From Candidatus Woesearchaeota archaeon (GTDB lineage: Archaea > Nanobdellota > Nanobdellia > Woesearchaeales > UBA10216), in assembly GCA_016180085.1 (NCBI GenBank), contig JACPBX010000003.1, positions 74,655 through 138,654 of the forward strand: a stretch of DNA of 64,000 bases, in the 5' to 3' direction. The notes under the pieces are model-generated. The model was given only the letters and a program-made list of their open reading frames with translations. It was not told where the DNA came from and searched no databases. The translations under genes and the position numbers were made by a program. Below are positions 11,416-60,524 of the stretch, piece by piece. The first letter of the stretch is position 1; each line of letters begins with the position of its first letter.

Positions 11416-11563
11416 GTTAATCCCCTCTTTCCTTTCCTCTCAGGTTTCTGCGGCAATAAAGGGCAATATATAGAGGACTTTGAATAACCGCTCATATTTA
11501 ATTTTTGTTTAAAGTCCTCTCAGCGTATCGCTGAGGGATGTCAGCTCTAAGCTGACATTCTCT

Positions 11564-11605
11564 TAGACAACTTTGCTATACGACGGGGTTAATCAAAGTT
11601 GTCTA
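11564..11605. promoter_or_regulatory. Perfect 12-bp inverted repeat TAGACAACTTTG-N18-CAAAGTTGTCTA followed by TATAAAT; candidate operator / divergent-promoter element
   Basis: Read directly from sequence (arms at 11564-11575 and 11594-11605); lies in the 260-bp non-coding gap between divergent HAD and aminotransferase genes; two shorter hairpins (ctcagcg-tat-cgctgag at about 11517-11533 and tcagc-tctaa-gctga at about 11541-11555) lie just upstream. Confidence 0.4.
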
Positions 11606-11678
11606 TAAATCTTATTTTGCATGCTTGCAACCTGTTTCACTCCCTAACTATCGAAAACTTTAAGTAAGGCTGCTCTGG

Positions 11679-12800: not shown

Positions 12801-13888
12801 ACGGGAATGATGGAAAAGTGGGAAAGGCCAGGGTTTTTGCACCGGCAACAACAGCCAATGTCGGCCCGGGCTTTGACATCTTTGGCGTTGCACTTGATGG
12901 CGTAGGCGATATTGTCGAAGCTGACTTGTCTGATTCTTTCAGTGGTGTAAGGCTGGCGGAGGTTGCTGTCGGTTCAGACAGCGAAAGCTTAAAGGACCTT
13001 CCAATGGATGAGGCAAATCTCGTTTTTCCCGTTGCAAAGGCAGTGTATGATGCGGCTTGCAAAGCTGGCCGCAAAGACACCGGCGTTGAGGTAAGGCTGA
13101 TTAAGAGGATGGGAATAGGCACAGGGCTCGGCAGCAGCGGCTCAAGCTCTGTTGCTGCTGCCGTTGCAGTTAATGAGGCTTTGGGCGGGGTTTTTGCCCG
13201 TGACAGCCCCGAGATGCTTGCTGCTGTCCTGGAAGGCGAATTTGTTGCCTGCGGCTCCAGGCACGCTGATAATGTTTTCCCTGGCCTTCTTGGCGGCTTT
13301 GTCTTCATCGAGGACCCAGCCTCATTCAGGTTCAGGAAGTTTGACGTTGGCAGAGACGTGTTTTTTGTAGTTGTTACGCCTGAAATTGTCGTCAGCACAA
13401 AGGAAGCAAGGGATGCATTAAGGGCTTCGCCATACAACATCGGTGAGCTTGTAAGCCTTTCCAGCTCAGTGGTTAGGCAATACCTTGACTCGGGCAGCCG
13501 CAGCTCAGGCAGTATTCCTGCTTCAGTTGTTGGCACTGGCTCGGCTGATGTTGTTTCAGCTTACCTGGAGGGAACGGTTGAGGTTCTAACAGGCCTGATT
13601 GGCAATGATGCTGAGCTGCTTGGCAGGGGCACGCTGAAAGATGGCATTGTTACCCCAATAAGGGCAGGGCTTATTCCGGGCTATTACGATGTCAAGAAGG
13701 CCGCCCTTGAGGCTGGCGCAAAGGGGTTTTCAATTTCTGGCTCAGGCCCTTCTGTTTTTGCAGTGGCTTATGAGGAAGATGCTGAGGCTGTAAAGAAAGC
13801 CATGATTGGCAGGTTTGAGGGCCTGGGCAAAAGGGCGAGCGGCATCATCTCAGCCGTAAACAACAAAGGCGCCTGCCCGGTTGAGTGA
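12797..13888 (+). CDS. GHMP-family kinase, homoserine-kinase (ThrB)-like
   Basis: 363 aa; N-terminal APATTANVGPGFDIFGVAL (ThrB-type motif 1) and GIGTGLGSSGSSSVAAAVA (GHMP ATP-binding motif 2). Confidence 0.75.
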   Translation: MNGNDGKVGKARVFAPATTANVGPGFDIFGVALDGVGDIVEADLSDSFSGVRLAEVAVGSDSESLKDLPMDEANLVFPVAKAVYDAACKAGRKDTGVEVRLIKRMGIGTGLGSSGSSSVAAAVAVNEALGGVFARDSPEMLAAVLEGEFVACGSRHADNVFPGLLGGFVFIEDPASFRFRKFDVGRDVFFVVVTPEIVVSTKEARDALRASPYNIGELVSLSSSVVRQYLDSGSRSSGSIPASVVGTGSADVVSAYLEGTVEVLTGLIGNDAELLGRGTLKDGIVTPIRAGLIPGYYDVKKAALEAGAKGFSISGSGPSVFAVAYEEDAEAVKKAMIGRFEGLGKRASGIISAVNNKGACPVE

Positions 13889-13936: not shown

Positions 13937-15184
13937 TTGTTGGAAGTGGAATGCATGATTGATGTTGGCAGGTTCAGGAACATACAATATGGGAAAAGGA
14001 CAAGGTGCATGGCTTGCGGGGCAGCTGTTGGCAAGCCGCTGATAAGCCTGCCTGATTTTCCTTTGAGCGAGATTTACACGGACCGCCCTGTTAAGGAGAA
14101 AGCAGGATTTGTTGACCAGGAGTTCTGCCTTTGCAAAAGCTGCGGCCATGGCCAGCTGCTTAACATAATCCCGCCGGAGCTCCTTTACTTTGGCAGCAGC
14201 TACTTTTTCAGGACTTCGCAGAGCAGGACTGCTGTGCCAGCTGTTGACTTCTTTCTCGACTTTGTCGAGGGCGTTCTTAAAAGCAGGGCTTACGATACCA
14301 TTGCTGACATTGGCTGCAACGACTTGTACATGCTGAAGAAGCTTGACGCTAAGGCAAAAAGGCTTTTGGGGATTGACCCTGTCCTCGCAGGAAGGGAGAA
14401 GGAGCTTTCTGAGGGGAAGACCGTTGTCATTGGGGACTTGTTTGAGAATGCTGTTGCCAATCACAACGTATCTTTCGATAAGGACCTTGTGCTTAGCAGC
14501 CACACCCTGGAGCACGTGAAGGACCCTAAGTGGCTTGTCAAGACTGTGCTTGACAGTTCAACAGATAACACGCTGTTCGGTTTCCAGTTCCCGGGTTTCG
14601 AGAGCCTGGTGAGGGATGCAAGGTTTGATCAGGTGTTCCACCAGCACTATAACTATTTCACTTTGAAGTCAGTCGTCCGCATGCTTACGGACCTGGGCGC
14701 AGAGCTTGTTGCTTACAAGGTGAACCCTTACCACTGGGGTGCGCTGATGATAGTGTTCAGGAAAAACCCCTCAGGCTCAACAGCCTGGCACAAGAGGTTT
14801 GAGCATGATGCTGTGCAGCTCACTGATGAGGCAGTCCTCTCGCAGTACCGGGTTTTTCAGGATGCCATGAAGCTGGCAGGTGAGCGCCTTTCAGCGTGGA
14901 AGGGCAGCACGGTTTACGGCTACGGCGCAGCAAACATGCTTCCCGTCCTGAGCTACCACATGAAGAACGACCTTTCCTGCCTTCAGGCTGTATTGGATGA
15001 TGATGAGCGCAAGCAGGGCATGCACTACATCAACCTTCCTGTTGCCATAAAGTCCCCTTCTGTTGTTAAGGACTTCAAGGATGTTGTGCTGTTCCTTACA
15101 GCCATTGACAATTCCAGGATACTTGTGCCAAAGCTTATCTCGCTCGCACCAAAGAAAATTATCCTTCCCCTTAACATTGTGTAG
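13937..15184 (+). CDS. NDP-hexose C-methyltransferase (TylCIII family; Zn-ribbon + Methyltransf_13/14)
   Basis: 415 aa; N-terminal CMAC...CKSCGHGQL Zn-ribbon, SAM motif DIGCNDLYML, C-terminal C-methyltransferase domain. Confidence 0.75.
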   Translation: MLEVECMIDVGRFRNIQYGKRTRCMACGAAVGKPLISLPDFPLSEIYTDRPVKEKAGFVDQEFCLCKSCGHGQLLNIIPPELLYFGSSYFFRTSQSRTAVPAVDFFLDFVEGVLKSRAYDTIADIGCNDLYMLKKLDAKAKRLLGIDPVLAGREKELSEGKTVVIGDLFENAVANHNVSFDKDLVLSSHTLEHVKDPKWLVKTVLDSSTDNTLFGFQFPGFESLVRDARFDQVFHQHYNYFTLKSVVRMLTDLGAELVAYKVNPYHWGALMIVFRKNPSGSTAWHKRFEHDAVQLTDEAVLSQYRVFQDAMKLAGERLSAWKGSTVYGYGAANMLPVLSYHMKNDLSCLQAVLDDDERKQGMHYINLPVAIKSPSVVKDFKDVVLFLTAIDNSRILVPKLISLAPKKIILPLNIV

Positions 15185-15322
15185 CCATTATGCAGCGCTA
15201 TGTGATTCTCCTCCATAAAATTTCGGGCTATGACGGTAAGAGGGGGTAAAATTTATATACTCTCACGGATTCGGGACAGCTTCCGGAAAACAGCTGCGTG
15301 TTTGCAGCAGTCTTGAAGGGGG

Positions 15323-16117
15323 TTGTTTTTTATGGATTTTGGTCTGACTGGCAAGAAAGCCTTGGTTACTGCAGCGAGCCGCGGCATTGGCGCGTCCATT
15401 GCAATAAACCTGGCAAAGGAAGGCGCGCTGGTTGCTATTACAGCGAGGAGCGAGCCTGACCTTAAGGAAGTCATTGCAAAGATGGGCGGCGAAGGTAAAG
15501 GCCATTACATGGTTGTTGCTGACCTGACTGCCGAGGACGGCCCGAAGAAAGTTTTTGACAAGGTTCTGAAGGATTTTGGCTCCCCTGACATTCTTGTCAA
15601 CAACCTTGGCGATACGCTTGAGCTCCGAGACCCTTTTATCCCAATCAGTGACTGGAGAAAAATCATAAGGCTCAACCTTGAGGTCGCCATTGAGCTGAAC
15701 AATCTTGTTATTCCGCATATGGAGCAGAGGAAATGGGGCAGGATAGTTAATGTTTTGTCAACAGCATCTTACGAGAACAACGGGCCTGTCCCTTACTGCA
15801 CTGCCAAGGCTGCCTTCTCGGCTTATACGAGAAGCATGGCCAGGGTTTTGGCAAAGACAGGCATTGTTATGTCCGGCATTGTGCCTGGCGCTATTTTCAC
15901 AGAGGGCGGTGCCTGGGACATTGCCATGAAGACAAGGCCTGAGCACATCCGCAAATACCTGGAGGAAAGGCTCCCCCTGGGCAGGTTTGGCGAGCCTGAT
16001 GACATAGGTACCATGGCTGTTGTGCTGTGCTCAGAGCAGGCAAAGTTCTGCCAGGGCTCCATTTTCCCTGTTGATGGCGGCCAGAGCAGGCACTATTTTC
16101 GGGCTGCCACTGATTAA
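15323..16117 (+). CDS. Short-chain dehydrogenase/reductase (FabG-like ketoreductase)
   Basis: 264 aa; ALVTAASRGIGASIA (TGxxxGIG), NNLG, YCTAKAA (YxxxK). Confidence 0.85.
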   Translation: MFFMDFGLTGKKALVTAASRGIGASIAINLAKEGALVAITARSEPDLKEVIAKMGGEGKGHYMVVADLTAEDGPKKVFDKVLKDFGSPDILVNNLGDTLELRDPFIPISDWRKIIRLNLEVAIELNNLVIPHMEQRKWGRIVNVLSTASYENNGPVPYCTAKAAFSAYTRSMARVLAKTGIVMSGIVPGAIFTEGGAWDIAMKTRPEHIRKYLEERLPLGRFGEPDDIGTMAVVLCSEQAKFCQGSIFPVDGGQSRHYFRAATD

Positions 16118-16118
16118 A

Positions 16119-17918
16119 ATGAAGCTGTCTGACTATGTTGTGGAGTTTTTGGTTGAGCAGGGCATAAGGCACGTTTTTCTAGTTTCAGGAGGGGCGGTTG
16201 CGCACCTTGTTGATTCAGCAGCAAGAAACCCCAGAATGACTTACGTGTGCCCTGAGCATGAGCAGAACGCAGGCTCTGCTGCTGATGCCTATGCGAGGAT
16301 AACGGGGAAGATGGGTGCCGTGTTCACGACGAGCGGGCCTGGCGCCACCAACCTTGTGACGAGCGTTTGCAACTCATATTTTGACTCAATCCCTGTTATT
16401 TTCATCACAGGCCAGGTTGCGACATTCCGCATAAGGCCCAGCGAGAGGCTTCGCCAGAAGGGCTTTCAGGAAACCGATGTTATTTCCATATTTAAGTCAA
16501 TCACCAAATACTCGATACAGCTCAGGAAAGCAGAGGACATCAAGTTCGTCCTTCAGGAAGCTGTCCATGCAGCCACGTCAGGGAGGATGGGTCCTGTCCT
16601 TGTTGATATTCCTGATGATTTGCAAAGGGTCGAGATTGACCCTGAAAAGCTTCGGGATTTTAAGCCTTTGGCTGCCCAGGCAGGTGCAGTAAACCCGGCA
16701 AATGACCTGTCAGCTGTTAAGGATGTCTTTGCAGCCATAAGGTCTGCGAAAAGGCCTGTGCTTATCCTCGGCGCGGGCATCAGGCTTTCAGGCACAGTTC
16801 CTGAAGCCCTGAAGTTTGCCGAGCATTTCCGCATTCCGTTCCTTTTGACGTGGGGCGCTATGGACATGGTTGAGCACGGCTATGAGCTTAACATGGGCGG
16901 TGTTGGCGTTTGCGGCCCAAGAGGAGGTAATTTTGCAGCCCAGACGTCAGACCTTGTTGTTGCGCTTGGCACAAGGCTTTCCCAGATGATTACAGGCGGC
17001 AAGCAAAACCTTTTCGCTCCCTATGCGAAAAAAATCATGGTTGACGTTGATGCTGAGGAGCTTAACAAGTTCTCGCCAAGCGATGTTGTCCTTGACGTGA
17101 AAATCAGCTGTGGCCTCAGGGATTTTTTTGCAGAATGCGAAAGGCTTTACAGCGGCACCGGCCCTGCCGAAAAGGGCAGGCTGAAGGAGTGGAGGCAGCA
17201 AATCAATGAGTGGAGAATGAAATACCCAATCTGTCCCGGGTCAAACTACGGCAGGAAGGAAAGGGTTGATGCATACGTTTTTATCAGGGAGCTGTCAAAG
17301 GCAGCCAAGGAAGGTGATGTCATTTTCACCGATGCAGGCGGCAACCTGAGCCAGACCATGCAGGCCTTCGAAGTGAAAAAAGGCCAGCGCCTCATCTCAG
17401 CCTGGAACCACTCGCCCATGGGCTATGCGCTTCCTGCAGCCATTGGCGCTGCGTTTGCAATCGGCCAAGGCAGCGGCAAGGACATCCTGTGCATCATCGG
17501 CGATGGCGGCATTATGATGTGCCTTGAGGAGCTTGCGGTTATTGCCAAGCACAACCTTCCAATAAAAATTTTCGTTTTTAACAACCATGGCCATGCAATC
17601 CAGAAGCAGACCATCGATACCTGGCTTAACTCGCATTACGTGGCTGTTGACGAGTCTTCCGGCCTTGCTTTCGCTGATTTTGACAAAATCGGCCCGGCCT
17701 TCGGGCTTCCGGCTGTTGCCATAAGAAACCACGAAGAGCTTAAGGCAAAGCTTGGCAAGGTCCTTGGCGCCAAGGGCCCTGTGCTGTGCAATGTTGAGAT
17801 TGCTGTAGACCAGAGGATTGTTCCGATGCTCAGGTTTGGCGCAGGCATTGAGGACCTGGACCCAAAACTGCCTAAGGAAGAGGTTGAGGCAATCATGGCT
17901 GTTGGCAGGAAAAGGTAA
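16119..17918 (+). CDS. Thiamine-pyrophosphate-dependent enzyme of the acetolactate-synthase/benzoylformate-decarboxylase family (YerE-like candidate)
   Basis: Start moved to MKLSDYVVEFLVEQGIRHVF (ATG 16119, 1 nt after the SDR stop); N-terminal Pyr domain, central domain, C-terminal PP domain with GDGG...N TPP-binding motif (IIGDGGIMMCLEEL...FNN). Confidence 0.8.
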   Translation: MKLSDYVVEFLVEQGIRHVFLVSGGAVAHLVDSAARNPRMTYVCPEHEQNAGSAADAYARITGKMGAVFTTSGPGATNLVTSVCNSYFDSIPVIFITGQVATFRIRPSERLRQKGFQETDVISIFKSITKYSIQLRKAEDIKFVLQEAVHAATSGRMGPVLVDIPDDLQRVEIDPEKLRDFKPLAAQAGAVNPANDLSAVKDVFAAIRSAKRPVLILGAGIRLSGTVPEALKFAEHFRIPFLLTWGAMDMVEHGYELNMGGVGVCGPRGGNFAAQTSDLVVALGTRLSQMITGGKQNLFAPYAKKIMVDVDAEELNKFSPSDVVLDVKISCGLRDFFAECERLYSGTGPAEKGRLKEWRQQINEWRMKYPICPGSNYGRKERVDAYVFIRELSKAAKEGDVIFTDAGGNLSQTMQAFEVKKGQRLISAWNHSPMGYALPAAIGAAFAIGQGSGKDILCIIGDGGIMMCLEELAVIAKHNLPIKIFVFNNHGHAIQKQTIDTWLNSHYVAVDESSGLAFADFDKIGPAFGLPAVAIRNHEELKAKLGKVLGAKGPVLCNVEIAVDQRIVPMLRFGAGIEDLDPKLPKEEVEAIMAVGRKR

Positions 17919-17923
17919 GAAAA

Positions 17924-18967
17924 ATGGGAAATGAAGACGTTATTTCAGCAGTGAAATCAAAGTATCCGCTTTCCAGGCTCAAGGAGATGCTTGAGGGCCT
18001 TGGAAGTGTTAAGGCGATGGTGGTGGGCGATACCATAATTGACGAGTATCACTTCACAATCCCGAAGGGCAGGGCCACGAAGGACCCTATTTTGTCCGTT
18101 GACTACATCAACCACGAGGTTTATGCCGGCGGCATTTTGGCAATTGCCAACCATGTCAGCAACTTTGTTGGCAGCGTTACGTGCGTAACGCTTCTGGGTA
18201 ATAAGGACGACAGGAAGGGCTTTGTTGAAGGCTCGCTTAACAGGAACGTTACCCTGAAATCCTTTATGAAGGAGAACTCACCTACAACTGTTAAAAAGCG
18301 CTATCTGAACTATCTTCGCAACGAAAAGCTGTTTAAGGTTGAGTACATTAACGACAGGCCCATATCTGAAAAGCTTGAGGCTGAACTGATAGCTTTCCTT
18401 AATGTTGAGCTGCCCAGGCACGACCTTGTCCTGGTCGGTGACTTTGGCCACGGCATGATAACCCCGGCAATTATTGAGGTATTGGAGAAAAAGGCGAAAT
18501 ACCTTTGTGTCAATGCGCAGAGCAACAGCTCAAACCTGGGCTTCAACTTTGTGACAAGGTATCATTTGCCCGCTTTTGTGACAATGGACGTCCAGGAGCT
18601 CCAGTACGCTGTTGGCGACAGGTTCAGCCCCATGCCTGTCCTTATTCAGAAGCTGCACGAAAAGGCAGGCTTTAACAAGTTCCTCGTGACTATGGGCAAG
18701 GATGGCGCTGGCTTCTTCAGCAGCGGCAGGCTTTCTTTTTTCCCTGCCTTTGTGACAAGGCCTCAGGACACTGTCGGGGCTGGCGACGCTGTCTTTTCCA
18801 TCGCATCCCTTTTCTCCTACAGCAGCCATGATGAGCTGATTCCCTTCATTGCCAACTGCGTGGGAGGGATTGCTGTTTCGTACATGGGCAACAAGGAGTT
18901 CATAACCAGGAACGCGCTTGTCAGCTTTGTTGAAGAAGTGTATAATGGCAATACGAAGGTGCGGTGA
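17924..18967 (+). CDS. hldE: PfkB-family sugar kinase, HldE/RfaE domain-I-like (heptose 7-phosphate 1-kinase candidate)
   Basis: 347 aa; N-terminal AMVVGDTIIDEY, C-terminal DTVGAGDAV (PfkB motifs); co-occurs with gmhA and an adenylyltransferase-GmhB fusion. Confidence 0.7.
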   Translation: MGNEDVISAVKSKYPLSRLKEMLEGLGSVKAMVVGDTIIDEYHFTIPKGRATKDPILSVDYINHEVYAGGILAIANHVSNFVGSVTCVTLLGNKDDRKGFVEGSLNRNVTLKSFMKENSPTTVKKRYLNYLRNEKLFKVEYINDRPISEKLEAELIAFLNVELPRHDLVLVGDFGHGMITPAIIEVLEKKAKYLCVNAQSNSSNLGFNFVTRYHLPAFVTMDVQELQYAVGDRFSPMPVLIQKLHEKAGFNKFLVTMGKDGAGFFSSGRLSFFPAFVTRPQDTVGAGDAVFSIASLFSYSSHDELIPFIANCVGGIAVSYMGNKEFITRNALVSFVEEVYNGNTKVR

Positions 18968-18991
18968 TTATAGCGCTTATCGCTTACTTCG

Positions 18992-20140
18992 TCATCTTTC
19001 CATTACCTTGTCAAACTCGTTCTTCAGCTCTTCATAGCTTTTGTCTGTGACGTCGATGAATGCAGCATTGGCGTTCCGTGCCATGCCGGCGTCGTCTTCG
19101 CTGTTGCCGATAACGGCTGCCTTGTCAAACTCCTTTATGTTCTTGCCCAGCTGCTGTAAGGCCTGCAGCAGCATCTCGGGGCTCGGCTTCCTTTTTGTTT
19201 TCTTTTTTACAAAATCCGGGTTGAAATTAGCTTCTTTCTGTAAGGCGGCATAGTCCGCATCAGCGTCTGGGCAGTATTGCCAGTTGTTTATTATAACACC
19301 TTTTCTTCTCAATAATTCATGAATGTGCTTGTTTACAGCTTCAACTTTTTCCGCATCAAAATAGCCCCTGGCAACTCCCTGCTGATTTGAAATAACGACC
19401 CTGACAGTGTCGTACTTTGTCTGTATGTAGATGAGCAAGTCAACAACTTCTTTCTTTAGCTTTATCTGATCTCTCCAGTTAGAGTCTTTGCCCAGAAAAT
19501 TAACCTTCTCCACCAATGTGCCGTCCCTGTCAATCACCAGCAGCACTTTTTCGCTCTTTGCATTTTCCTGTATGTGCCTGATGATGGCCGTTGTTGACAT
19601 TTTCTGGTCTGTGGTATACTTTATTTCGCCGCCAACAGCCTTTATCGCTTCTCTCTCGGAAGTGATTCCTGGTGTTGTCTTTTCAGCAAAATCGGGCCCT
19701 TTTATGTAATAGGCAGGTTTTAGCATTTTAATCAGGTCGGTTGCTTTCTCAAAGTCGCTGACAATCACGTAGTCAACATACCGGATGCTTGCAACTGAAT
19801 AAGCCCTTAATGCCTCTGAGAAGATTGGCCTGCCGCTGCCTTTCCTGGCTGCCACAAACCTGTCTGCGGTTACTGCAACAAAAAGGCAGTCGCAAAGCTT
19901 TTTTGCTGATTCCAGGTGCTTTATGTGACCTGGATGAAGAAGGTCAAAGCCGCCGTTGCAAAGCCCGGCTTTCCTTCCCTGCTTCCTCAGCTCCTCGCTT
20001 TTTTCCACAGCCTCGGCAAGGCTTATGACCTTGTCGGACCTGTAGTTTTTGGGTGAGTCTTCCTTTATCATCTGCAATGCAGCCCTATTTGCCGCCTCCG
20101 CCTCCTGCAAGCTTTTTAACCTTCCTGATAATTGCTTCAA
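18992..20140 (-). CDS. Bifunctional cytidylyl/adenylyltransferase (HldE domain-II-like) fused to D,D-heptose-1,7-bisphosphate phosphatase (GmhB-like HAD)
   Basis: N-terminal CNGGFDLLHPGHIKHLESAKKL...LFVAV (HIGH-type nucleotidyltransferase, like HldE-II/TagD); C-terminal LLVIDRDGTL...ISNQQGVARGYF...YCP...RKPSPEML...GNSEDDAGMARNA matches GmhB; start may be the internal ATG at 20071, which would remove the 56-nt overlap with the next gene. Confidence 0.7.
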   Translation of the reverse strand: MKQLSGRLKSLQEAEAANRAALQMIKEDSPKNYRSDKVISLAEAVEKSEELRKQGRKAGLCNGGFDLLHPGHIKHLESAKKLCDCLFVAVTADRFVAARKGSGRPIFSEALRAYSVASIRYVDYVIVSDFEKATDLIKMLKPAYYIKGPDFAEKTTPGITSEREAIKAVGGEIKYTTDQKMSTTAIIRHIQENAKSEKVLLVIDRDGTLVEKVNFLGKDSNWRDQIKLKKEVVDLLIYIQTKYDTVRVVISNQQGVARGYFDAEKVEAVNKHIHELLRRKGVIINNWQYCPDADADYAALQKEANFNPDFVKKKTKRKPSPEMLLQALQQLGKNIKEFDKAAVIGNSEDDAGMARNANAAFIDVTDKSYEELKNEFDKVMER

Positions 20141-20822
20141 GCCAGACTTCGGCGAATAGTTTGGGTATGAAGGCCGTTACCCCTAATATGTTTTTCGCCC
20201 TGAACATCTTTGAGCTGGGCTTCGGCGCTATGTTGACTGGTATTTCCTCATAGCTGTGGCCCCGGCGGAGCAGCCTTACAAGTATTTCCGCCTGGAAGGC
20301 GTAGCTGTTGGTTGTTATCCTTGCCTGCCTTGCGAGGCTTGTTTCATAGCACACCATCCCGAGATAATATTTCAGCCTCAGCCCGAAGAGCACGTTGAGT
20401 GTTGTTGTGAACATTGTTGATATCAGCCTTCTGTCTACTGGCCTTGTTTCCCTGTTGGCAACATATGCTACGATGATGTCTTTTTCGCCAACGTGCTGCA
20501 GGAATGCCTTCACTGATTCGGGTGGTATGCCGCCGCTGCCAGGCAGAATCATGATGTACTTTTTGGCTGCAGCTGTAAGCCCTGCGCGGTAGCTGTAGCC
20601 GACGTTCATGTTTTTCCTGTTGTGGATGACCCTTATCCTGTGGTTTTCCCTTGCAAGCCGGTCTGCCATCTCTGGCGTTTTGTCAGTGCTTCCGTCATCA
20701 AGGATTATTAGTTCGTAGTCGTTGAACACGCTGCCGACAGCTTCAATGATGTTCCTGACCGCTGCTGAAAGGTTTCTTTCCTCGTTATATGCAGAGATTA
20801 GGATGGTTATTGACCTTTCCAT
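20085..20822 (-). CDS. GT2 glycosyltransferase (Dpm1-like)
   Basis: Start taken at MERSITILISAYNEE; ILDDGSTDKT motif. Confidence 0.75.
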   Translation of the reverse strand: MERSITILISAYNEERNLSAAVRNIIEAVGSVFNDYELIILDDGSTDKTPEMADRLARENHRIRVIHNRKNMNVGYSYRAGLTAAAKKYIMILPGSGGIPPESVKAFLQHVGEKDIIVAYVANRETRPVDRRLISTMFTTTLNVLFGLRLKYYLGMVCYETSLARQARITTNSYAFQAEILVRLLRRGHSYEEIPVNIAPKPSSKMFRAKNILGVTAFIPKLFAEVWLEAIIRKVKKLAGGGGGK

Positions 20823-20862
20823 GCTGTCATGCTCCCACATAGCTATGTTATTAATTAAGCTG

Positions 20863-21993
20863 TTAGAATGGCCCCGTGAAGCTCGGGTCTGGCACGTCGG
20901 GCTTGGCAGGCAGCTTCTGCCTCTCTGACTCGGCTATGGCTTTCGCCTGCCCTTCCGGCACATTTGCCAGCTCGCACACCTCTTTTATTATGTCGATGTG
21001 CGATGGATAATAATGCTTGCTCAACGCATGGCTCGTTGGTGTCGGGATGTCCGGCAGCGTCACCCTTTTTGGCGCTGCTTTCAGCCTGCCAAACAAGGAT
21101 TTGTTTTCGCTGACCCTCGCTATGATATCGCCTGCAAGCCCGCCTGAGTAGTAGCCTGAGTCGATGACAAGGAGCTTGCCTGTTTTTTCAACGCTCTGCC
21201 TGATTGTTTCGAAGTCCAGAGGCTTTATCGTCCTTAAGTCTATGATTTCAGGGCTTACTTTCCCGGCCAGTGCATTTGCCGCTTTCATAGCCTGAACAGT
21301 CATGTAAGAGCTTGTTACGATTGTCACGTCTTTTCCTTCCCTGAGCACCTTTGCCTTTCCAATGGGCACTGTGTATGGCTTTTCAGGCACATACCCTGTT
21401 ATGTTGTGCAGCCACCTGTGCTCTATGAATATGACTGGGTTGTTGTCCTTTACGCTTGCGATGAGAAGCCCTTTTGCATCATAGGCGTTGCTTGGCATCA
21501 CGACTTTCAGCCCAGGCGCATGTGCCAGAATGGCTTGCAGGTTTTGCGAATGCTGGGCTCCCTGCCCCCAGCCCTGCCCTATTATTGCCCTTATGACCAT
21601 TGGCACGCTCAGCCTGCCTCCAAACATGTAGTGCCATTTCGCTGCATTGTTTACAATCTGGTCCATGGCAAGGAGGATGAAGTCGAGCCTTTGGTGCACC
21701 ATAATCGGCCTTAGGCCTTTCAGTGCTGCCCCTATGCACACCCCTGTGAGGCCGTTTTCCGATACCGGCATGTCAAGCACCCTGTTTTTGCCGTGCTTTT
21801 CCCGGAGCCCTGTTGTTGTGCCAAAGATGTGCTTCGGGTCAGGCACGCCTTCGCCTATTACGAACACAGAGCTGTCCATCTGCATGCACTGGTCTGTTGC
21901 TTCCAGCACTGCCTCTGCGTAGGTTATCTTTCTCTTCCTTTCATCTTTAGCAGCTTCAGCCGTTGTTTCCATTTTTTCCATTTCCATCAGCAT
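20863..21993 (-). CDS. Pyruvate/2-oxoacid dehydrogenase E1 component beta-subunit-like (transketolase Pyr + C-terminal domains)
   Basis: 376 aa; IGEGV...G, AEN(GL)TGVCIGAAL, HSQN...PGLKVV characteristic of E1-beta; no E2/E3 genes nearby. Confidence 0.8.
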   Translation of the reverse strand: MLMEMEKMETTAEAAKDERKRKITYAEAVLEATDQCMQMDSSVFVIGEGVPDPKHIFGTTTGLREKHGKNRVLDMPVSENGLTGVCIGAALKGLRPIMVHQRLDFILLAMDQIVNNAAKWHYMFGGRLSVPMVIRAIIGQGWGQGAQHSQNLQAILAHAPGLKVVMPSNAYDAKGLLIASVKDNNPVIFIEHRWLHNITGYVPEKPYTVPIGKAKVLREGKDVTIVTSSYMTVQAMKAANALAGKVSPEIIDLRTIKPLDFETIRQSVEKTGKLLVIDSGYYSGGLAGDIIARVSENKSLFGRLKAAPKRVTLPDIPTPTSHALSKHYYPSHIDIIKEVCELANVPEGQAKAIAESERQKLPAKPDVPDPSFTGPF

Positions 21994-22994
21994 TAGTCAG
22001 CGTAAAGGTTGTCTGCCAGGGTTTCCTTTGCAGGGAAAGGGCTCTCCTTTGCGAACCTGAATGCCTCGTTCACTTCTTTCTTTACAGTTTCGTCAATTGC
22101 CTCAAGCTCCTTTTCCGTTGAAACCCTTTTGCCGAGCAGGGTTTCCCTGAGTTTTTTGATTGGGTCTTTTTCCTTCCATTCTGCTATTTCCTGTGCTGTC
22201 CTGTAGCCGAGCTTTGAGTCATCGTTTGGGCCGACGTGCTCAAGCCACCTGTATGTTGCAAACTCAAGGAACGCCGGTCCGGCTCCTGACCGCGCATGCT
22301 CAACCGCTTTTTTCGCTGCTGTGTAGACTGCAATGGCGTCGTTGCCATCCGCTTTGAAAACTGCTATGCCCTGTGCTTTTGCGAGCTGCGTTATTTCGCG
22401 CTCAGGCTGCCTTTCCCTTATGTGCGTCTGGCTTGCGTAGAGGTTGTTTTCGCAGGCAAACAGCACAGGCAGCCTGTGCAGTGCTGCGAAGTTCGTTGCC
22501 TCGTGGAACGCCCCCCCCTCAACAGCCGAATCGCCAAAGAAAGCAACCGAAATTGCGTTCTTCTTTTGCATCCTCGCTGCGAGCGCAGCTCCTACAGCAA
22601 CTGGTATCGTCCCTCCAACCAATGGAGTTGAGGCAACAAAATTTGCTGCCAGGTCAATCAGGTGCATTGAGCCTCCCCTGCCTTTTGCGCAGCCGGTTTC
22701 CTTTCCGTATAGTTCTGCAATCATGGCTTTCAGGCTGCCTCCCTTTGCAAGGTAATGGCCATGAGCCCTGTGGTTGGAGAATGCGCTGTCTTCACTCGTC
22801 AGGTTTTGGCACACGCCCGCAGGCACTGCCTCCTGGCCTATGCAGAGGTGCACCGGGCATCTCATTTCCTGCTCTGGGTAAAGCTCGGCTATCCTTTCCT
22901 CTGTTCTCCTTATCAGGAGCATCGAGCTGTAAAGTCCAAGAAGTATGTTATTGTCAGGCAGATTTTCCATTTTTTCATCATCAGCGTTTTCCAT
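21993..22994 (-). CDS. Pyruvate/2-oxoacid dehydrogenase E1 component alpha-subunit-like (TPP-binding)
   Basis: 333 aa; GQEAV, HRAHGH, FFGDSAVEGGAFHEA...CENNLYA (GDG-x25-NN TPP motif); the beta-subunit gene start (21993) overlaps its first base by 1 nt. Confidence 0.8.
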   Translation of the reverse strand: MENADDEKMENLPDNNILLGLYSSMLLIRRTEERIAELYPEQEMRCPVHLCIGQEAVPAGVCQNLTSEDSAFSNHRAHGHYLAKGGSLKAMIAELYGKETGCAKGRGGSMHLIDLAANFVASTPLVGGTIPVAVGAALAARMQKKNAISVAFFGDSAVEGGAFHEATNFAALHRLPVLFACENNLYASQTHIRERQPEREITQLAKAQGIAVFKADGNDAIAVYTAAKKAVEHARSGAGPAFLEFATYRWLEHVGPNDDSKLGYRTAQEIAEWKEKDPIKKLRETLLGKRVSTEKELEAIDETVKKEVNEAFRFAKESPFPAKETLADNLYAD

Positions 22995-23102: not shown

Positions 23103-25406
23103 ATGGGGTTTGTTCCGGTTTTCGTGTTTTTGGCATGCACCTGGGGCCTTGGGTTCTCTGTCCTGAGGCTCGCCAGGGCTGGGGAGCAGGATAGCTTTCT
23201 TGAGCGCAACGTCATGAGGATAGGCATAGGCCTGTCATCCTTTGTCGTGCTTGGAGTGATATTTAACGCTCTTGGAATCCCCCTGGACTACAGGGTTTTC
23301 CTTGTTTTTTCCGGGTTGATGCCCGCCTACGAGCTTCTGGTAAGGAAGGGCTTCAGGAAAACAAAGGCAACGCCATCAGCAAACTCGCAGGAAAAAACAG
23401 GCGGAAAGGCAGGCATGAAGCTGAAGCTATCTGACATCAACGCTGTTGTTGTCCTGGTGATATTTGCCGCAACACTCATCATGTATCTGTCAGGAGCGTT
23501 CAGGTACCCATATCTTGAGGATGACGACCCGTGGGGGCACGCGTCTGCTGTAAAGTACGTGTCTGTGGAGAAGACAGCCAATGACCCGGCTACGCTTGAT
23601 TTCCATTACATGGACCCGTATCCTCCGGGCTATGACATGGTATTGGGCATTCTGAATCAGGTTTCGTCATCAACAGCATGGACACTGAAGTTCTTCAATG
23701 CGCTTTTCATCTCCCTTAGCATCATGTTCTTTTATTTCTTCACAAAGGAGTTCTTTGGCAACAGGAACAAGGCGCTCTTCGCGGCCTTTGTGCTTGCGTC
23801 AGTGCCTGCCTACCTGAGTCATTTCATATGGGCGCCTGCGCTTGCAATGGCTGTTTTTTCCCAGGCAATGTATTCGTTGGAGATGTTAAAGCATGACAGG
23901 AAGTGGTGGGCTGTTGCAGGCGTCTGCTTTGCAGCAATATTGCTCTCGCATCCAACCCATGCAGTCAAGCTGACAGGGCTTGTGCTGATATATGTTGGCG
24001 TGAAGGCTGTTGCCAACCTTACGTTCAGCACAAAATCTCTGCCTTTGCTGCTGCGTCAGCTGCAGCCGAGCCTCGGCAATTTTGCCGCAGTTGCTTTTGG
24101 TGTTTTCCTGTCCTTGTTCTGGTGGGCAGCCAAGTGGAAAGGCTTTTTCGGCGTGGCAAGGGGAAGCTTCAGGGCAGGGAGCGAGGCTGTAACAGGGGCT
24201 GTTGGAAGCTCAGGCAGCATGCTTGCAAAGCTCCTTTCGCTGCCGGCAAGAATCTTCAACGCAGAAAGCGGCACAGCAACAAGGGTCTATCTGCTGAGGG
24301 ATTTCGCGGTTGTCCAGGGCAACAACATGATAAACAATCCCGTGGGGCTGGGCTTTTTTGCCTTCGTGCTGATGGTTGCAGGGATTGTTTCTGCTGCTTC
24401 AAAAATTGTAATGCATTTGCCAAAGAGGAAAGCCGCAATAGCTGCGGCAGCTGCGGCGGTTATAGTCCTGGCTGTGATTATAGCTTCAAACACTTATGAA
24501 TACCAGACAAACCTGTACGAGACCGGGTCTAGGTTTGCACAGTTTCTGCAGTCGCCGCCAAGCTATGCAAGCGTGTTTCTCATGTCGCTGATGTTAAGCT
24601 CATTGGCGGTCGCTTTTGTTCTTTCAATTGCTGCCATAATTATTTTGAGGCGGAAATCCCACAGCCAAGGCGACCAAGGCGACCAGGAGAATCAGCAAAA
24701 CTGGCAAAGCAGCCTTGTTATAGCAGCGATACTGCTGGGTTGGCTGCTTTTTACATTTTTGGGCGTGAACAGCCGGACGTTCAACCTGCCTGTGGGGCTT
24801 TTTGCATTCAGGTTCTGGATGATTTTTGCCATACCTGCTGCAATGCTGGCTGCCGAGGGGCTTTTTTCCATGCTGGGGCTGGTTAAGGCGCTGAAGCTTG
24901 ATGCCGCAACAGCAACAACAGTGAAACTGGCAATAATAGCTGTTGTTGTCGCGGGAGTGCTTTTCACTTCTGCGAAGCAGAAGTATGACACAAACACTAG
25001 CTGCTGGCCATCCGGTGCGTTCTGGAGCGGGGAGTTTGTGCTTGAGCCAGGCTCTAACTGCCCGGTCCAGGCAGAGCTGCTGTCCTACCAGTGGCTGAAG
25101 ACCCTGCCTGCAGGGACAAAGGTGTTTACTTTTTCCAACCCTGACCAGGTGATAGGGTTTGACAAGTACTCGTGCGGGTGGTGTGCGCCGGAATATGGCA
25201 TGCGGCAGAGGTTCTACAATGTCACAGCATCAGAACTAAACAGCTTCATGGCCGAGAACAGTTACGAATACCTTATTCTGGGAGGAATTGAAGCCAGGAA
25301 CTACGGTCTGAACAGGACAGTCCAGCTCATAAACGAGTTTGCTGAGTCAAGGCTCTTTACTGTTGCCTACAACGGCCAGTCAGCGGTGGTGTTCAGGACA
25401 GCATGA
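23103..25406 (+). CDS. Large polytopic membrane protein, GT-C-fold glycosyltransferase candidate
   Basis: 767 aa, more than 12 predicted TM segments; periplasmic-loop acidic motif YLEDDDPWGH; large C-terminal soluble domain; 4-nt overlap with the next GT-C gene. Confidence 0.55.
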   Translation: MGFVPVFVFLACTWGLGFSVLRLARAGEQDSFLERNVMRIGIGLSSFVVLGVIFNALGIPLDYRVFLVFSGLMPAYELLVRKGFRKTKATPSANSQEKTGGKAGMKLKLSDINAVVVLVIFAATLIMYLSGAFRYPYLEDDDPWGHASAVKYVSVEKTANDPATLDFHYMDPYPPGYDMVLGILNQVSSSTAWTLKFFNALFISLSIMFFYFFTKEFFGNRNKALFAAFVLASVPAYLSHFIWAPALAMAVFSQAMYSLEMLKHDRKWWAVAGVCFAAILLSHPTHAVKLTGLVLIYVGVKAVANLTFSTKSLPLLLRQLQPSLGNFAAVAFGVFLSLFWWAAKWKGFFGVARGSFRAGSEAVTGAVGSSGSMLAKLLSLPARIFNAESGTATRVYLLRDFAVVQGNNMINNPVGLGFFAFVLMVAGIVSAASKIVMHLPKRKAAIAAAAAAVIVLAVIIASNTYEYQTNLYETGSRFAQFLQSPPSYASVFLMSLMLSSLAVAFVLSIAAIIILRRKSHSQGDQGDQENQQNWQSSLVIAAILLGWLLFTFLGVNSRTFNLPVGLFAFRFWMIFAIPAAMLAAEGLFSMLGLVKALKLDAATATTVKLAIIAVVVAGVLFTSAKQKYDTNTSCWPSGAFWSGEFVLEPGSNCPVQAELLSYQWLKTLPAGTKVFTFSNPDQVIGFDKYSCGWCAPEYGMRQRFYNVTASELNSFMAENSYEYLILGGIEARNYGLNRTVQLINEFAESRLFTVAYNGQSAVVFRTA

Positions 25407-26950
25407 ATAAGCTGTATAAGTTATCAAGATTGTTTGGAAACGACAGCTATGCAAAGCTGGCCCTGGCAGTTATAATAATAGGGGCTATAGTGAGGTTCTC
25501 TCTTGCAGCGCTTAGCCATCCTGCCGGTGACAGCTGCTGGCACCTTTCGGTTGCGAGGTTTATCGCCGAAAACGGCAGGATACCGCTTCTTGAGCCGTTC
25601 GGCATAACAGACAGGCAGGTGTTTACAGCCCCTCCCCTGTTTCACCTGATTGCTGCAGCTGTTTACAAGGTTTTCAGCCTGGTAAGCATACCTGCTGCCG
25701 AGCTAGCATACAAGCTCGTCTCTCCGCTATTCGGCGCATTAACGCTGCCTGTGGTTTTCCTGCTTGGCAGGAAGCTGTACAATCCAAAAATTGCGTTCTG
25801 GGCCACGTTCTTCCTGGCGTTCCTGCCGCTGCACATGAACTCCAGCGTTGTGTCGTTTGTTGATTCGCTCACCACTTTGCTTGCTGCTCTGGCTGTTTAT
25901 TTCCTTGTTTCAAGAAGGGTGCTGGCCGCAGCCGTTTTCCTGGGCCTCGGCCTGGCTGCAAAGCAGACCATGATAGCCCTGGTGCCTGTGTTTTTCCTGG
26001 CCCTGGCAGTTTTTTACAGGAAAAACCTGAAAGCCCTCATAGCAAAGTCATTGGCCTCAGCGCTCATAGCCGCAGTGATAGGGCTGCCGTGGCTTATCAG
26101 GAATTACGTGCTGCTCAAAAATCCTGTCTGGCCTTTCCTTTACAAGCTGATAGGAGGCACAGTAGCTCCGGAAGTGGCGGAAGGGTTTTCAGCAGCCTAC
26201 CTGTTCTCAGCTGGCCATGCCCTGAGGTTTTTCCTTGAGCTTATGGGAGCTCCTCTTGGAAGCCTCGGTGCTGTGGCATTTTTGAAGCTGCCGTTTGCTG
26301 GCGCAGTCAGTGTAATGCTTGCAGTATGGCTTGCGCTGGTGATTATTTTTTCCGTGCCTGTTATTGCCGGAGTCCTTGCCAGGGGTGTAAAGCACCGCTG
26401 GCTGCTTTATGCATGGATGGCGGCATTCCTGCTGGTAACCATGGTTTACATAATCAACGTAGGCATGGGGTCTGCAAGGTTTTTCCTTGCATCAGCGCCG
26501 GCACTCGCGATTATATGGGCAGTCGGGATTGACAGGATACTCGGCAAGGCAGGCAGCATTCAAGGCATTGAAGGGATGCGCAGGCTTAGTGTAACAGCAC
26601 TTGTAATTATGGTGGTTGTAGGCAGTGTTGTTGCATTTGCTGCTGTTGAGGCTGCAAAAACAATTACCGGTGCCAATGAGTGGGCAAAGTACGAAGAGGA
26701 CTTCAGCTGGATAAGGCAGAACACGCCCCAAAAAGCGCTCATAGGATACAGGGGGCAGTGCATGAGCTACAACGTGCACCGCTTCTCGAACTTCAAGCTC
26801 GACAAGGTTGACTACCTATGGGTAAACCAGGGCTTCAGGCTTGAGCCTATAAGCATTTTGGAGCCGCAACTGCTTGGGCAGGTTCAGGGTAATTTCACCA
26901 AGGTCTACGATAACAGCGCAACAGGGACCGTGATTTACAAGAGAAAATAG
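25403..26950 (+). CDS. GT-C-fold membrane glycosyltransferase (GT39/GT83 ArnT/PMT-like)
   Basis: 515 aa; first-loop motif HPAGDSCWHLSVARFIAENGRIP matches the D-x-x-x-H...AR...G...P signature of ArnT/PMT_2-family enzymes; multiple TMs. Confidence 0.65.
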   Translation: MNKLYKLSRLFGNDSYAKLALAVIIIGAIVRFSLAALSHPAGDSCWHLSVARFIAENGRIPLLEPFGITDRQVFTAPPLFHLIAAAVYKVFSLVSIPAAELAYKLVSPLFGALTLPVVFLLGRKLYNPKIAFWATFFLAFLPLHMNSSVVSFVDSLTTLLAALAVYFLVSRRVLAAAVFLGLGLAAKQTMIALVPVFFLALAVFYRKNLKALIAKSLASALIAAVIGLPWLIRNYVLLKNPVWPFLYKLIGGTVAPEVAEGFSAAYLFSAGHALRFFLELMGAPLGSLGAVAFLKLPFAGAVSVMLAVWLALVIIFSVPVIAGVLARGVKHRWLLYAWMAAFLLVTMVYIINVGMGSARFFLASAPALAIIWAVGIDRILGKAGSIQGIEGMRRLSVTALVIMVVVGSVVAFAAVEAAKTITGANEWAKYEEDFSWIRQNTPQKALIGYRGQCMSYNVHRFSNFKLDKVDYLWVNQGFRLEPISILEPQLLGQVQGNFTKVYDNSATGTVIYKRK

Positions 26951-31572: not shown

Positions 31573-31779
31573 TGGAAGCCAGCCGCAGACCGAGATTTAT
31601 AAAGTTTACTTCAGCCTCAACATGTTCAAAGCATTAAGTTTATAAAAACTTCAGGCTGCACGTGCAGGAATGGGAAAAGTCAAACTGGCAGCTGCCCTGC
31701 TGTGGATGATAGCAATATTTCTGGCATACTACTGGCTGAAAACATCTGAAATAATAGCCTTTTATCTGGGGGGATAAGC

Positions 31780-33693: not shown

Positions 33694-33694
33694 A

Positions 33695-34412: not shown

Positions 34413-34419
34413 ATCAGAA

Positions 34420-58044: not shown

Positions 58045-58094
58045 TGGGCGAAAGTGTGAATGGCAGGATTATAAAGCTTTTGCCGCCATTTGCG

Positions 58095-60500: not shown

Positions 60501-60524
60501 GGCTTTGCACCGGTTTCTGCTATT

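Follow-up and report, generated by a model that had tools for sequence, protein, structure and literature searches.

Two thiamine diphosphate-dependent systems in one conserved glycan cassette of a Woesearchaeota archaeon, with a possible role in tailoring a nucleotide-activated heptose

We analysed a stretch of 64,000 nucleotides from a Candidatus Woesearchaeota archaeon (contig JACPBX010000003.1, positions 74,655 to 138,654; hereafter, the window), which encodes an acetolactate synthase (ALS)-like enzyme and, a few genes away, a pair of proteins resembling the alpha and beta subunits of pyruvate dehydrogenase (PDH) E1, both dependent on thiamine diphosphate (ThDP). The two systems are not independent: they are parts of one conserved cassette. 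The genes of both are present with intact cofactor motifs, and in many phyla they are accompanied by the same partner genes. The reading we favour, with a probability of roughly 0.55, is that the cassette contains two ThDP carboligases tailoring a nucleotide-activated heptose for a surface glycan. The initial annotation of this stretch had proposed that the two enzymes make one or more branched-chain sugars; the core of this proposal is supported, but it was incomplete, as it missed that there is a single cassette, that further parts of it lie at 9070-10776 and 30856-37092, and that heptose is the likely sugar.

Domains were assigned by Pfam and NCBIfam scans of the open reading frames (ORFs) of at least 150 aa in the whole 64-kb window. 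The window in its entirety is a glycan island with many GT2, GT4 and GT-C glycosyltransferase genes, a Wzx-like flippase, DegT aminotransferases and extended short-chain dehydrogenases/reductases (SDRs), while no lipoyl/E2, E3 or ACT/IlvN domains were found in these ORFs (Pfam). The ALS-like family was traced by searching a single genome for each GTDB species with an alignment of the family, and recurring gene families were defined by tblastn and blastp with the window proteins, followed by all-against-all clustering. Below, counts out of 51 refer to the mapped loci, and counts out of 26, to the loci having full 10-kb flanks.

Fifty species-level loci carry orthologues of the ALS-like protein (40-82% identity), the hosts being two further Woesearchaeota, Chlamydiota, Omnitrophota, Nitrospirales, Gottesman- and Andersenbacteria of the candidate phyla radiation (CPR), Marinimicrobia, Verrucomicrobia, and Gamma- and Alphaproteobacteria. 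Three orthologues with 55-57% identity, from Chlamydiae, Omnitrophota and a groundwater bacterium, have common neighbours, namely E1 alpha, E1 beta, an SDR, methyltransferases (MTs), a zinc-dependent alcohol dehydrogenase (Zn-ADH), a 240-aa GT2, two small membrane proteins and a GT-C. The E1 pair is situated within 10 kb of the ALS-like gene in 18 of the 26 full-flank loci; since a genome typically holds few E1 pairs (an estimate, not a computed value), the chance of one lying at most 10 kb from a given gene would be of the order of 1%. The methyltransferase MT11 is present in 19/26 of these loci, a heptose-activation gene in at least 13/26, and SDRb or an alternative 276-aa SDR in 23/26, at no more than 10 kb from the ALS-like gene and usually adjoining it.

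The frequencies of the recurring families in all mapped loci are given in Table 1; GmhA-, HldE- and GmhB-like genes also recur. MT11 is the commonest companion of the ALS-like gene (49-83% identical orthologues), usually in the order MT-Zn-ADH or MT-Zn-ADH-GT2, and the Zn-ADH, which passed no NCBIfam equivalog model, has orthologues of 39-91% identity adjoining MT11. The C-methyltransferase (CMT)-like gene and SDRb form a fixed pair (32-63% identity) adjoining the ALS-like gene. Orthologues of Epim3, an extended SDR (38-82% identity), are located directly upstream of E1 alpha, those of GT2c are followed by two small membrane proteins and a GT-C, and those of Epim4 are 52-85% identical. The sub-orders Epim3-E1 alpha-E1 beta, MT11-Zn-ADH-GT2, and CMT-like-SDR-ALS or ALS-SDR are fixed.

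The E1 pair is also tied to heptose genes at loci lacking the ALS-like gene, in a cyanobacterium, Chloroflexota, Methanocellales, another archaeon and on a plasmid of Azospirillum oryzae. The order HldE-like/extended SDR/extended SDR/E1 alpha/E1 beta/extended SDR was observed in Lusitaniella (a cyanobacterium), a Chloroflexota metagenome-assembled genome (MAG), a Methanocellales MAG and two further contigs, with genes for methyltransferases, Zn-ADH, DegT aminotransferases, radical S-adenosylmethionine (SAM) enzymes and glycosyltransferases on its flanks; neither E2/E3 nor the ALS-like gene was found at the five E1-only loci. Outside DPANN, the nearest E1 alpha homologues (55-60% identity) come from Chloroflexota, Methanocellales, cyanobacteria and Omnitrophota. 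A PLSDB protein search yielded one match reaching the very end of E1 beta, on a plasmid of the cultured A. oryzae KACC 14407, where the gene order is epimerase/SDR/PfkB (HldE-like)/SIS/SDR/E1 alpha/"transketolase C-terminal domain protein"/DegT/DegT/…/GT4/GT4. This 318-kb plasmid (NZ_CP054615.1, 197579-228646; locus L062) also carries carbamoyltransferase, radical-SAM, NUDIX and GT4 genes nearby, and a lasso-peptide cluster a few kb beyond the E1/heptose core.

At two loci a split transketolase occupies the position of the ALS-like gene, beside a CMT-like gene and an SDR (L060, 13766-15525; L061, 13647-15374), which suggests that the second ThDP step is interchangeable, being performed by either the ALS-like enzyme or the split transketolase. 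Three classes of ThDP enzymes are known to accept ketones, the YerE-like, the E1-type and transketolase (PMC12247030); hence, with YerE-like, E1-type and split transketolase genes all present, all three ketone-accepting classes occur in the cassette family. In several loci the split transketolase, encoded as N- and C-terminal halves, is additional to the ALS-like gene; L016, L044 and L049 also carry it.

For the ALS-like protein, we aimed to distinguish between a YerE-like carboligase and a true acetohydroxyacid synthase (AHAS). As the initial annotation stated, it belongs to the ALS family of ThDP enzymes, all three TPP_enzyme domains being found (Pfam E-values 2e-36 to 3e-28), and its start is the same in the public annotation of the contig (P0001, 100% identity, 599 aa). 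It scores 378.9 bits with the IlvB model TIGR00118, below the cutoff of 538.35, and 250-351 bits with the remaining AHAS equivalogs, whose cutoffs are 738-1084. Neither the window nor the annotated loci L001-L006 have a small subunit of the IlvN/IlvH type beside the gene, and no small ORF family recurs next to it in the 50 loci. The catalytic E48, G461-D462-G463 and N489 are invariant among the 27 family members, while Met290 stands in place of the second Arg in the AHAS RFDDR motif, the family having M in 24/27, L in 2/27, Q in 1/27 and R in 0/27 cases. This residue (Arg276 of E. coli AHAS II) we take to bind the carboxylate of the 2-keto-acid acceptor. Thus, with all AHAS equivalogs below cutoff, no small subunit and the RFDDR Arg absent, the protein is not a bona fide IlvB accompanied by a small subunit.

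The best PDB match is JanthE (8RPH, 335 bits, 34% identity), a YerE-like aldehyde-ketone carboligase from Janthinobacterium (PMC12188165), followed by E. coli AHAS I (271 bits) and PpYerE (5AHK), which at 251 bits is lower than AHAS I. All 27 family members score higher to JanthE (287-353 bits) than to the E. coli or yeast AHAS (226-296 bits), the sequences of JanthE, E. coli AHAS I and yeast AHAS used for scoring having been transcribed from printed alignments. In the alignment, the family and JanthE have in common a 6-residue insertion after the GQV motif and a C-terminal EDLxPxxP segment, and JanthE carries Pro in place of the second RFDDR Arg. Judged by these scores and features, the family appears nearer to one YerE-like enzyme, JanthE, than to AHAS. 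As its members are 53-82% identical to each other across phyla and 30-35% identical to any characterised enzyme, they form a distinct, well-conserved ALS-like lineage. An identity as phosphonopyruvate or sulfopyruvate decarboxylase or as Xsc was also considered and rejected: there is no phosphoenolpyruvate mutase, the Xsc models score far below cutoff, and the protein is a 600-aa one of the ALS type.

The E1 genes overlap by 1 nt and encode E1_dh, Transket_pyr and Transketolase_C domains (Pfam), in agreement with the initial annotation, which had described a PDH-type E1 pair lacking E2 and E3 partners; no such partner domains occur in the ORFs scanned. In the public annotation E1 alpha starts 8 codons later (P0121, 325 aa). 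E1 alpha scores 331.5 bits with TIGR03182 (cutoff 393.85), and E1 beta, 320.2 bits with the subfamily-type model NF006667 (cutoff 321) and 298.9 bits with NF008854 (cutoff 454). The best solved matches of the two subunits, for example the enzymes of G. stearothermophilus (1W85) and human (1NI4), score 197-241 bits. The ThDP/Mg motif GDS...ENN is intact in E1 alpha, and E1 beta keeps the cofactor Glu E79 and H148, which corresponds to beta-His128 of G. stearothermophilus. With these motifs the pair has the features of active ThDP enzymes. The motif, the Glu and the His are common to all E1-fold enzymes and thus do not discriminate among them. A loss of the lipoyl-directed His in E1 beta was examined and rejected: H148 is kept, and a carboligase cannot be told from a dehydrogenase by it.

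The C-terminus of E1 beta is more specific. All 30 orthologues examined have an extension of 23-36 residues past the canonical end, finishing with (V/T)PDxxF(T/V)GP(F/Y); in the window it comprises 36 aa and ends with VPDPSFTGPF. The tail (FTGPF or FVGPY) is absent from E1 beta of G. stearothermophilus, and the plasmid-borne E1 betas annotated as keto-acid dehydrogenases align up to approximately 330-349 of the query and not to the tail (sampled PLSDB rows). Canonical E1 beta C-termini presumably form part of the site binding the peripheral subunit-binding domain of E2, as we take it to be in G. stearothermophilus, and the conserved tail would fit an E1 that no longer docks to E2. Beside the E1 pair no E2 or E3 was found in approximately 30 loci from more than 10 phyla, as annotated by Pfam or in the records; the gene following E1 beta in the mapped loci is most often an SDR, an MT, a Zn-ADH or a GT2. 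The absence of E2/E3 at these loci, the fixed order with nucleotide-sugar SDRs and heptose genes, and the tail speak against assignment of the pair to an acetoin or pyruvate dehydrogenase with E2/E3.

Domain-level matches for GmhA, HldA, GmhB and HldC are present in the window, and HldE-like genes of the bifunctional kind are found in the related loci. Two of the genes concerned, the PfkB kinase, which begins 5 nt past the stop of the ALS-like gene, and the HldC-like/GmhB-like fusion, lie between the two ThDP systems and were unmentioned in the initial annotation. Epim3 has its best solved relative in 6VO6/6VO8 (139 bits, the next one scoring 83). We take 6VO6 to be Cj1427, in which case a ring ketone would follow. 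Cj1427 is a GDP-heptose C4-dehydrogenase that gives GDP-4-keto-heptose without dehydration (PMC10680097). Epim4 was also considered as a 4,6-dehydratase, which we rejected, as it has the motif SSSCYG and no TDE dyad, and its best solved matches are 4-epimerases.

We infer the chemistry and the product of the cassette as follows. The GmhA-like isomerase, the PfkB kinase and the HldC-/GmhB-like fusion would make a nucleoside diphosphate (NDP)-heptose, and Epim4 together with Epim3 would convert it to an NDP-keto-heptose with a ring ketone. The E1 pair would decarboxylate pyruvate and put the C2 unit on the carbonyl of this intermediate, as the antibiotic E1-type enzymes do; an SDR or the Zn-ADH would reduce the product, and MT11 would methylate it. 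The YerE/JanthE-like enzyme would attach a second acyl unit from a 2-oxo acid, the neighbouring SDR would reduce this branch as YerF/ErwF do (PMC9306805), and the C-methyltransferase-like enzyme may methylate it. A small GT2 (GT2c and/or GT2d) would then load the sugar on polyprenyl phosphate, the EamA/SMR pair would flip the carrier-linked sugar, and the GT-C at 31780-33693 would transfer it outside the membrane. In a fuller version, which we put forward tentatively, a keto-heptose undergoing two successive ThDP-dependent C-C bond formations, by the E1-type enzyme and then by the YerE-like enzyme or the split transketolase, would yield a C9-C11 sugar, either with two branches or with an extended chain, which would be exported on polyprenyl to decorate the surface of hosts as diverse as DPANN archaea, CPR bacteria, Chlamydiae, Omnitrophota, cyanobacteria and Azospirillum, and the FTGPF tail would mark an E1 lineage off the dehydrogenase complexes.

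The 2-oxo-acid donor of the second step could perhaps be supplied by the adjoining aminotransferase and homoserine-kinase-like genes, but homoserine-derived 4-hydroxy-2-oxobutanoate as this donor is a doubtful guess, and the class V aminotransferase as a donor supplier is speculative. The genes adjoining the ALS-like one vary, being class V aminotransferase, homoserine-kinase-like and HAD genes in the window and in the Woesearchaeota locus L007, and class I/II aminotransferase or PanB-like genes elsewhere. In three bacterial loci, L013 (9753-10658), L024 and L026, the gene immediately after the ALS-like one encodes a strong PanB (ketopantoate hydroxymethyltransferase) homologue (328 bits), and in four others a class I/II aminotransferase precedes the ALS-like gene. 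Neighbouring genes are known to supply functionalised 2-oxo-acid donors to YerE-like enzymes (PMC9306805), and the variable aminotransferase and PanB-like genes match this scheme.

Several observations weigh against the proposed heptose tailoring. Every score for the heptose-activation genes is under the NCBIfam equivalog cutoff. The identity of Epim3 to 6VO6 is approximately 36%, as judged by eye, and that 6VO6 is Cj1427 is presumed, searches by PDB code having given no confirmation. The E1 catalytic residues are all canonical, so that sequence alone leaves lipoyl-dependent chemistry possible. Of the 26 full-flank loci, 8 have no E1 pair in the 10 kb around the ALS-like gene. The 13 cassette families present in the window are scattered over approximately 28 kb and two strands, hence the feature reaches well past the segment delimited in the initial annotation (16119-22994), and the window is without the 276-aa SDR, the 228-aa MT, the third extended SDR and the radical-SAM protein common elsewhere. 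YpYerE, ErwE and AviB1/B2 were compared by description, not by sequence. Finally, the identity of the ALS-like protein to JanthE is just 30-35%, and the physiological substrate of JanthE itself is unknown (PMC12188165).

Among the alternatives, the one that survives best, although we consider it unlikely, is chain extension: one or both ThDP enzymes would add the C2 unit to an aldehyde, such as a C7-oxidised heptose or an open-chain sugar phosphate, in the manner of 1-deoxy-D-xylulose-5-phosphate synthase (DXS), giving a linear deoxy-sugar of C9 or longer with no tertiary-alcohol branch. Aldehydes are usually the preferred acceptors of E1- and DXS-type enzymes, E1 alpha has weak DXP_synthase_N matches (Pfam), the SDRs beside E1 are not 4,6-dehydratases, and at some E1-only loci CTP_transf_3 genes (CMP-ulosonic-acid-type cytidylyltransferases) hint at a ketose or ulosonate-like end product. 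However, there are no CTP_transf_3 genes in the window, the nearest solved relative of Epim3 is presumably a C4-dehydrogenase, which would give a ring ketone, and in the sugar pathways characterised so far the relatives of both enzyme types act on ring ketones (PMC12247030).

It is still less probable that one or both ThDP enzymes work off the sugar, producing an acyloin, a diol or a 2-oxo-acid-derived substituent that is attached later, or that one of the enzymes feeds the other. The partner families do recall acetoin and butanediol metabolism, as the SDR matches BudC (150 bits, below cutoff), a Zn-ADH is present, and the E1 has the size of an acetoin dehydrogenase; in addition, aminotransferase, homoserine-kinase-like and PanB-like genes adjoin the ALS-like gene. 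On the other hand, neither an acetolactate decarboxylase nor an attaching ligase or acyltransferase is conserved in the cassette, the E1 pair sits between nucleotide-sugar SDRs in nearly every locus, and the gene paired with the ALS-like one resembles C-methyltransferases of the TylC3 type, a family acting on NDP-keto-sugars.

A housekeeping role, that is, a true AHAS and the E1 of a pyruvate or acetoin dehydrogenase with distant E2/E3, would agree with the top NCBIfam names (acetolactate synthase large subunit, PDH E1 alpha/beta), the near-cutoff E1 beta score and the canonical E1 residues, but is extremely improbable given that the IlvB and PDH equivalogs are all below cutoff, IlvN, E2 and E3 are missing nearby in the window and in the approximately 30 related loci, the synteny with glycan genes extends over more than 10 phyla, among them lineages of minimal metabolism in CPR and DPANN, the AHAS acceptor Arg is replaced, and the extra tail is conserved on E1 beta at the presumed E2-contact end.

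Table 1. Genes of the cassette and its surroundings in the window, and the frequency of recurring families in the mapped loci
Feature	Coordinates	Strand	Length, domains and scores	Loci
Class I SAM methyltransferase MT11	9070-9723	+	Methyltransf_11/25/31 (Pfam)	31/51
Zn-ADH, candidate ketoreductase	9724-10776	+	ADH_N, ADH_zinc_N (Pfam)	22/51
HAD phosphatase	10762-11415	-	HAD_2 (Pfam)	
Class V aminotransferase	11679-12800	+	Aminotran_5; sub-threshold BhcA, PhnW/AepZ, SerC (NCBIfam)	
GHMP kinase, homoserine-kinase-like	12797-13888	+	NF002288 246 bits (cutoff 194)	
Divergent TylC3-type C-methyltransferase-like (CMT-like)	13937-15184	+	Methyltransf_13 31.2 (cutoff 31.3); Methyltransf_23; weak Methyltransf_14	10/51 (pair with SDRb, 13937-16117)
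Classical SDR SDRb, candidate YerF-like reductase of the acyl branch	15323-16117	+	adh_short 2.5e-40 (Pfam)	10/51 (pair with CMT-like)
ALS-like ThDP enzyme, YerE/JanthE-like candidate carboligase	16119-17918	+	599 aa; TPP_enzyme_N, _M, _C (Pfam)	
PfkB heptose-7-P-kinase-like (HldE kinase domain-like)	17924-18967	+	TIGR02198 rfaE_dom_I 5.9e-31, sub-cutoff	
HldC-like nucleotidyltransferase/GmhB-like HAD phosphatase fusion	18992-20140	-	CTP_transf_like and HAD; TIGR02199 rfaE_dom_II 6.5e-35, GmhB equivalog 1.4e-16, both sub-cutoff	
Small GT2 GT2c, candidate polyprenyl-phosphate sugar synthase	20085-20840	-	Glycos_transf_2; weak dolichyl-P hexose transferase and ArnC matches	20/51
E1 beta, family-specific C-terminal tail	20863-21993	-	376 aa; Transket_pyr, Transketolase_C (Pfam)	26/51
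E1 alpha, ThDP-binding	21993-22994	-	E1_dh 2.7e-78 (Pfam)	25/51
DUF6541 membrane protein	23103-25406	+	Pfam	
PMT_2 GT-C glycosyltransferase	25403-26950	+	Pfam	
C-methyltransferase/extended SDR fusion	27916-30219	-	767 aa; Methyltransf_13/23/14; Methyltransf_14 179 bits	
Cupin, possible keto-sugar isomerase/epimerase	30257-30649	-	130 aa; adjoins the C-methyltransferase/SDR fusion	
Second polyprenyl-phosphate-type small GT2 GT2d	30856-31572	-	Glycos_transf_2 6.4e-34	
PMT_2 GT-C	31780-33693	+	Pfam; 62-64% identical orthologues beside GT2c and E1 in L007, L008	
Two four-helix EamA/SMR-type proteins, ArnE/ArnF-like candidate flippase pair	33695-34048, 34020-34412	+	Multi_Drug_Res, EamA (Pfam)	
Extended SDR Epim3, candidate NDP-heptose C4-dehydrogenase	34420-35535	-	Epimerase (Pfam); true start probably near 35436	21/51
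Extended SDR Epim4, NDP-sugar 4-epimerase-like	35423-36487	-	Best PDB matches UDP-hexose and UDP-GlcA 4-epimerases	13/51
GmhA-like sedoheptulose-7-phosphate isomerase	36487-37092	-	SIS_2; TIGR00441 gmhA 4.7e-32, sub-cutoff	
276-aa SDR	not in window			31/51
228-aa MT	not in window			23/51
Third extended SDR	not in window			14/51

The surroundings of both ThDP systems agree with the initial annotation. SDRb, which ends 1 nt before the ALS-like start, and the C-methyltransferase-like gene are indeed directly upstream of the ALS-like gene, and the E1 pair is flanked by GT2c, directly downstream of E1 beta, and by a GT-C in the unit at 23103-26950. Of the two C-methyltransferases claimed, the one at 27916-30219, fused to an extended SDR, is clear, while that at 13937-15184 is divergent, its Methyltransf_13 and _14 scores being at or under the Pfam cutoffs. 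The fusion and the adjoining cupin look like a separate C-methyl-sugar sub-pathway. The DUF6541/PMT_2 pair is divergent from E1 alpha and has no orthologues in the bacterial cassettes; hence we regard it as context rather than core. GT2d is divergent from, and upstream of, the second GT-C and the small-transporter genes. A homologue of the latter (EamA/SMR) adjoins E1 alpha in L007, and an EamA-like pair does so in L060.

Upstream, the HAD phosphatase is kept only in L007 (80% identity), beside the aminotransferase and the kinase. The GHMP kinase gene is co-directional with the ALS-like operon, and its 69% identical orthologue is directly upstream of the ALS-like gene in L007, where the order is aminotransferase-kinase-ALS-like. 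The trio of HAD, class V aminotransferase and GHMP kinase genes (10762-13888; 6881-9868 in L007) is conserved only in Woesearchaeota, and may supply either a 2-oxo-acid donor derived from homoserine or a decoration with an amino-alcohol phosphate.

At other loci, a radical-SAM protein (approximately 300-320 aa) and a GT9 (heptosyltransferase)-like gene are located upstream of Epim3-E1 alpha-E1 beta in most of L003, L005, L014, L022 and L027 (Omnitrophota-type). In L007, L008, L041 and L060, a SPASM radical-SAM protein and a 300-aa epimerase come after the second ThDP enzyme; all these genes are absent from the window.

The G+C content is 0.43-0.46 at the window ends (1-2000 and 58001-64000) and approximately 0.50 over the glycan island; the drop may indicate either the limits of the island or DNA of different origin. 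The identity of the cassette proteins to their bacterial counterparts is 50-65%, as could be expected after a transfer between domains. An 801-aa GT4 (58095-60500, minus strand) contains an intein, Glycos_transf_1 extending to residue 304, Hint_2 spanning 305-368 and LAGLIDADG_3, 617-694; we know of no other inteins in glycosyltransferases.

No prior description of the cassette was found in the literature searched, although it may overlap with clusters of a 2024 survey. In that in silico survey, Krug et al. reportedly listed about 200 YerE-like and about 120 E1-type clusters. What appears to be new is the combination of both ThDP types in one cassette, the link to heptose instead of deoxyhexose genes, the apparent interchange of the second ThDP enzyme with a transketolase, the E1 beta tail, and the phylogenetic spread, which includes DPANN and methanogenic archaea and CPR bacteria. 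ThDP-dependent sugar branching has so far come from two settings, a few Gram-negative lipopolysaccharide (LPS) pathways and actinomycete antibiotics; here it would be one cassette in at least 10 phyla, mostly uncultured. If the proposed heptose tailoring holds, DPANN, CPR, Chlamydiae and Omnitrophota would be expected to carry complex higher-carbon or branched heptoses at their surfaces, the carboligases would be new ketone-accepting ones for biocatalysis, and the A. oryzae KACC 14407 plasmid would offer a tractable test organism. Cassette genes are labelled acetolactate synthase or PDH E1 in some JGI and NCBI annotations, which could inflate metabolic reconstructions of reduced genomes.

The initial annotation had called branched-chain sugars highly unusual for a cell-surface glycan; this is fair for the E1 type but overstated for the YerE type, which serves mainly LPS (PMC12247030). 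The two types have been described as alternative solutions, the YerE-like enzymes of Gram-negative bacteria serving mainly LPS, and the E1-type ones of Gram-positive bacteria serving specialised antibiotics (PMC12247030, PMC4753412).

Compared with known systems, the ALS-like protein is similar to AHAS (IlvB/IlvN, IlvI/IlvH) in its fold, cofactor motifs, FQE motif and 27-34% identity, and differs from it in the TIGR00118 score below cutoff, the lack of a small subunit, Met in place of the RFDDR Arg, the insertion after GQV, and the genomic context. Similarly, the E1 pair has the ThDP/Mg motif, the cofactor Glu and the active-site His of pyruvate and acetoin dehydrogenase E1 (1W85, 1NI4), but it has no nearby E2/E3, its alpha subunit scores below cutoff, and its beta subunit bears the extension of 23-36 residues.

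The small GT2, the small EamA/SMR pair and the GT-C encoded together resemble ArnC/ArnE-ArnF/ArnT and GtrA/GtrB/Gtr; the likeness is in the gene set, the sequence matches being weak NCBIfam ones. The capsular heptose pathway of Campylobacter jejuni (GmhA/HddA/GmhB/HddC, Cj1427, epimerases and reductases) proceeds from heptose activation to SDR oxidation to the 4-keto form and tailoring, as is proposed here; in contrast, activation here would be of the HldE/HldA-HldC type (PfkB plus cytidylyltransferase-like), ThDP enzymes would attack the keto intermediate, and no ThDP enzyme is among the C. jejuni enzymes listed (PMC10680097).

YerE/YerF of Yersinia pseudotuberculosis (yersiniose A), ErwE, MyGE, PpYerE and JanthE share with the window system a three-domain ALS-type enzyme with no regulatory subunit, a surface-glycan locus, a reductase before or after the ThDP gene, and neighbours that could supply a 2-oxo-acid donor (PMC9306805, PMC12247030). 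Nevertheless, the window protein retains an FQE motif like that of AHAS, as well as the position of Trp502, and has a canonical GDG motif where JanthE has CDG. The sugar genes associated with it are those for a heptose and not for CDP-3,6-dideoxy-4-keto-glucose, there being no ddh genes; moreover, the cassette has a second ThDP system and is present in archaea as well as in uncultured phyla.

In the biosynthesis of aldgamycin, avilamycin, paulomycin and kibdelomycin, E1-type enzymes add a pyruvate-derived C2 unit to a ketone (PMC12247030, PMC4753412). In AviB1/B2 (avilamycin), AlmDI/DII (aldgamycin), KbDH-alpha/beta (kibdelomycin) and the paulomycin enzymes, as in the window, an E1 pair without E2/E3 is encoded among nucleotide-sugar tailoring genes and is followed by reductases, methyltransferases or aminotransferases (PMC12247030, PMC4753412). 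The substrates of these known branching enzymes, which are encoded in antibiotic clusters of actinomycetes, are deoxyhexoses or pentoses, whereas the E1 pairs described here are found in surface-glycan loci with heptose genes, in both bacteria and archaea.

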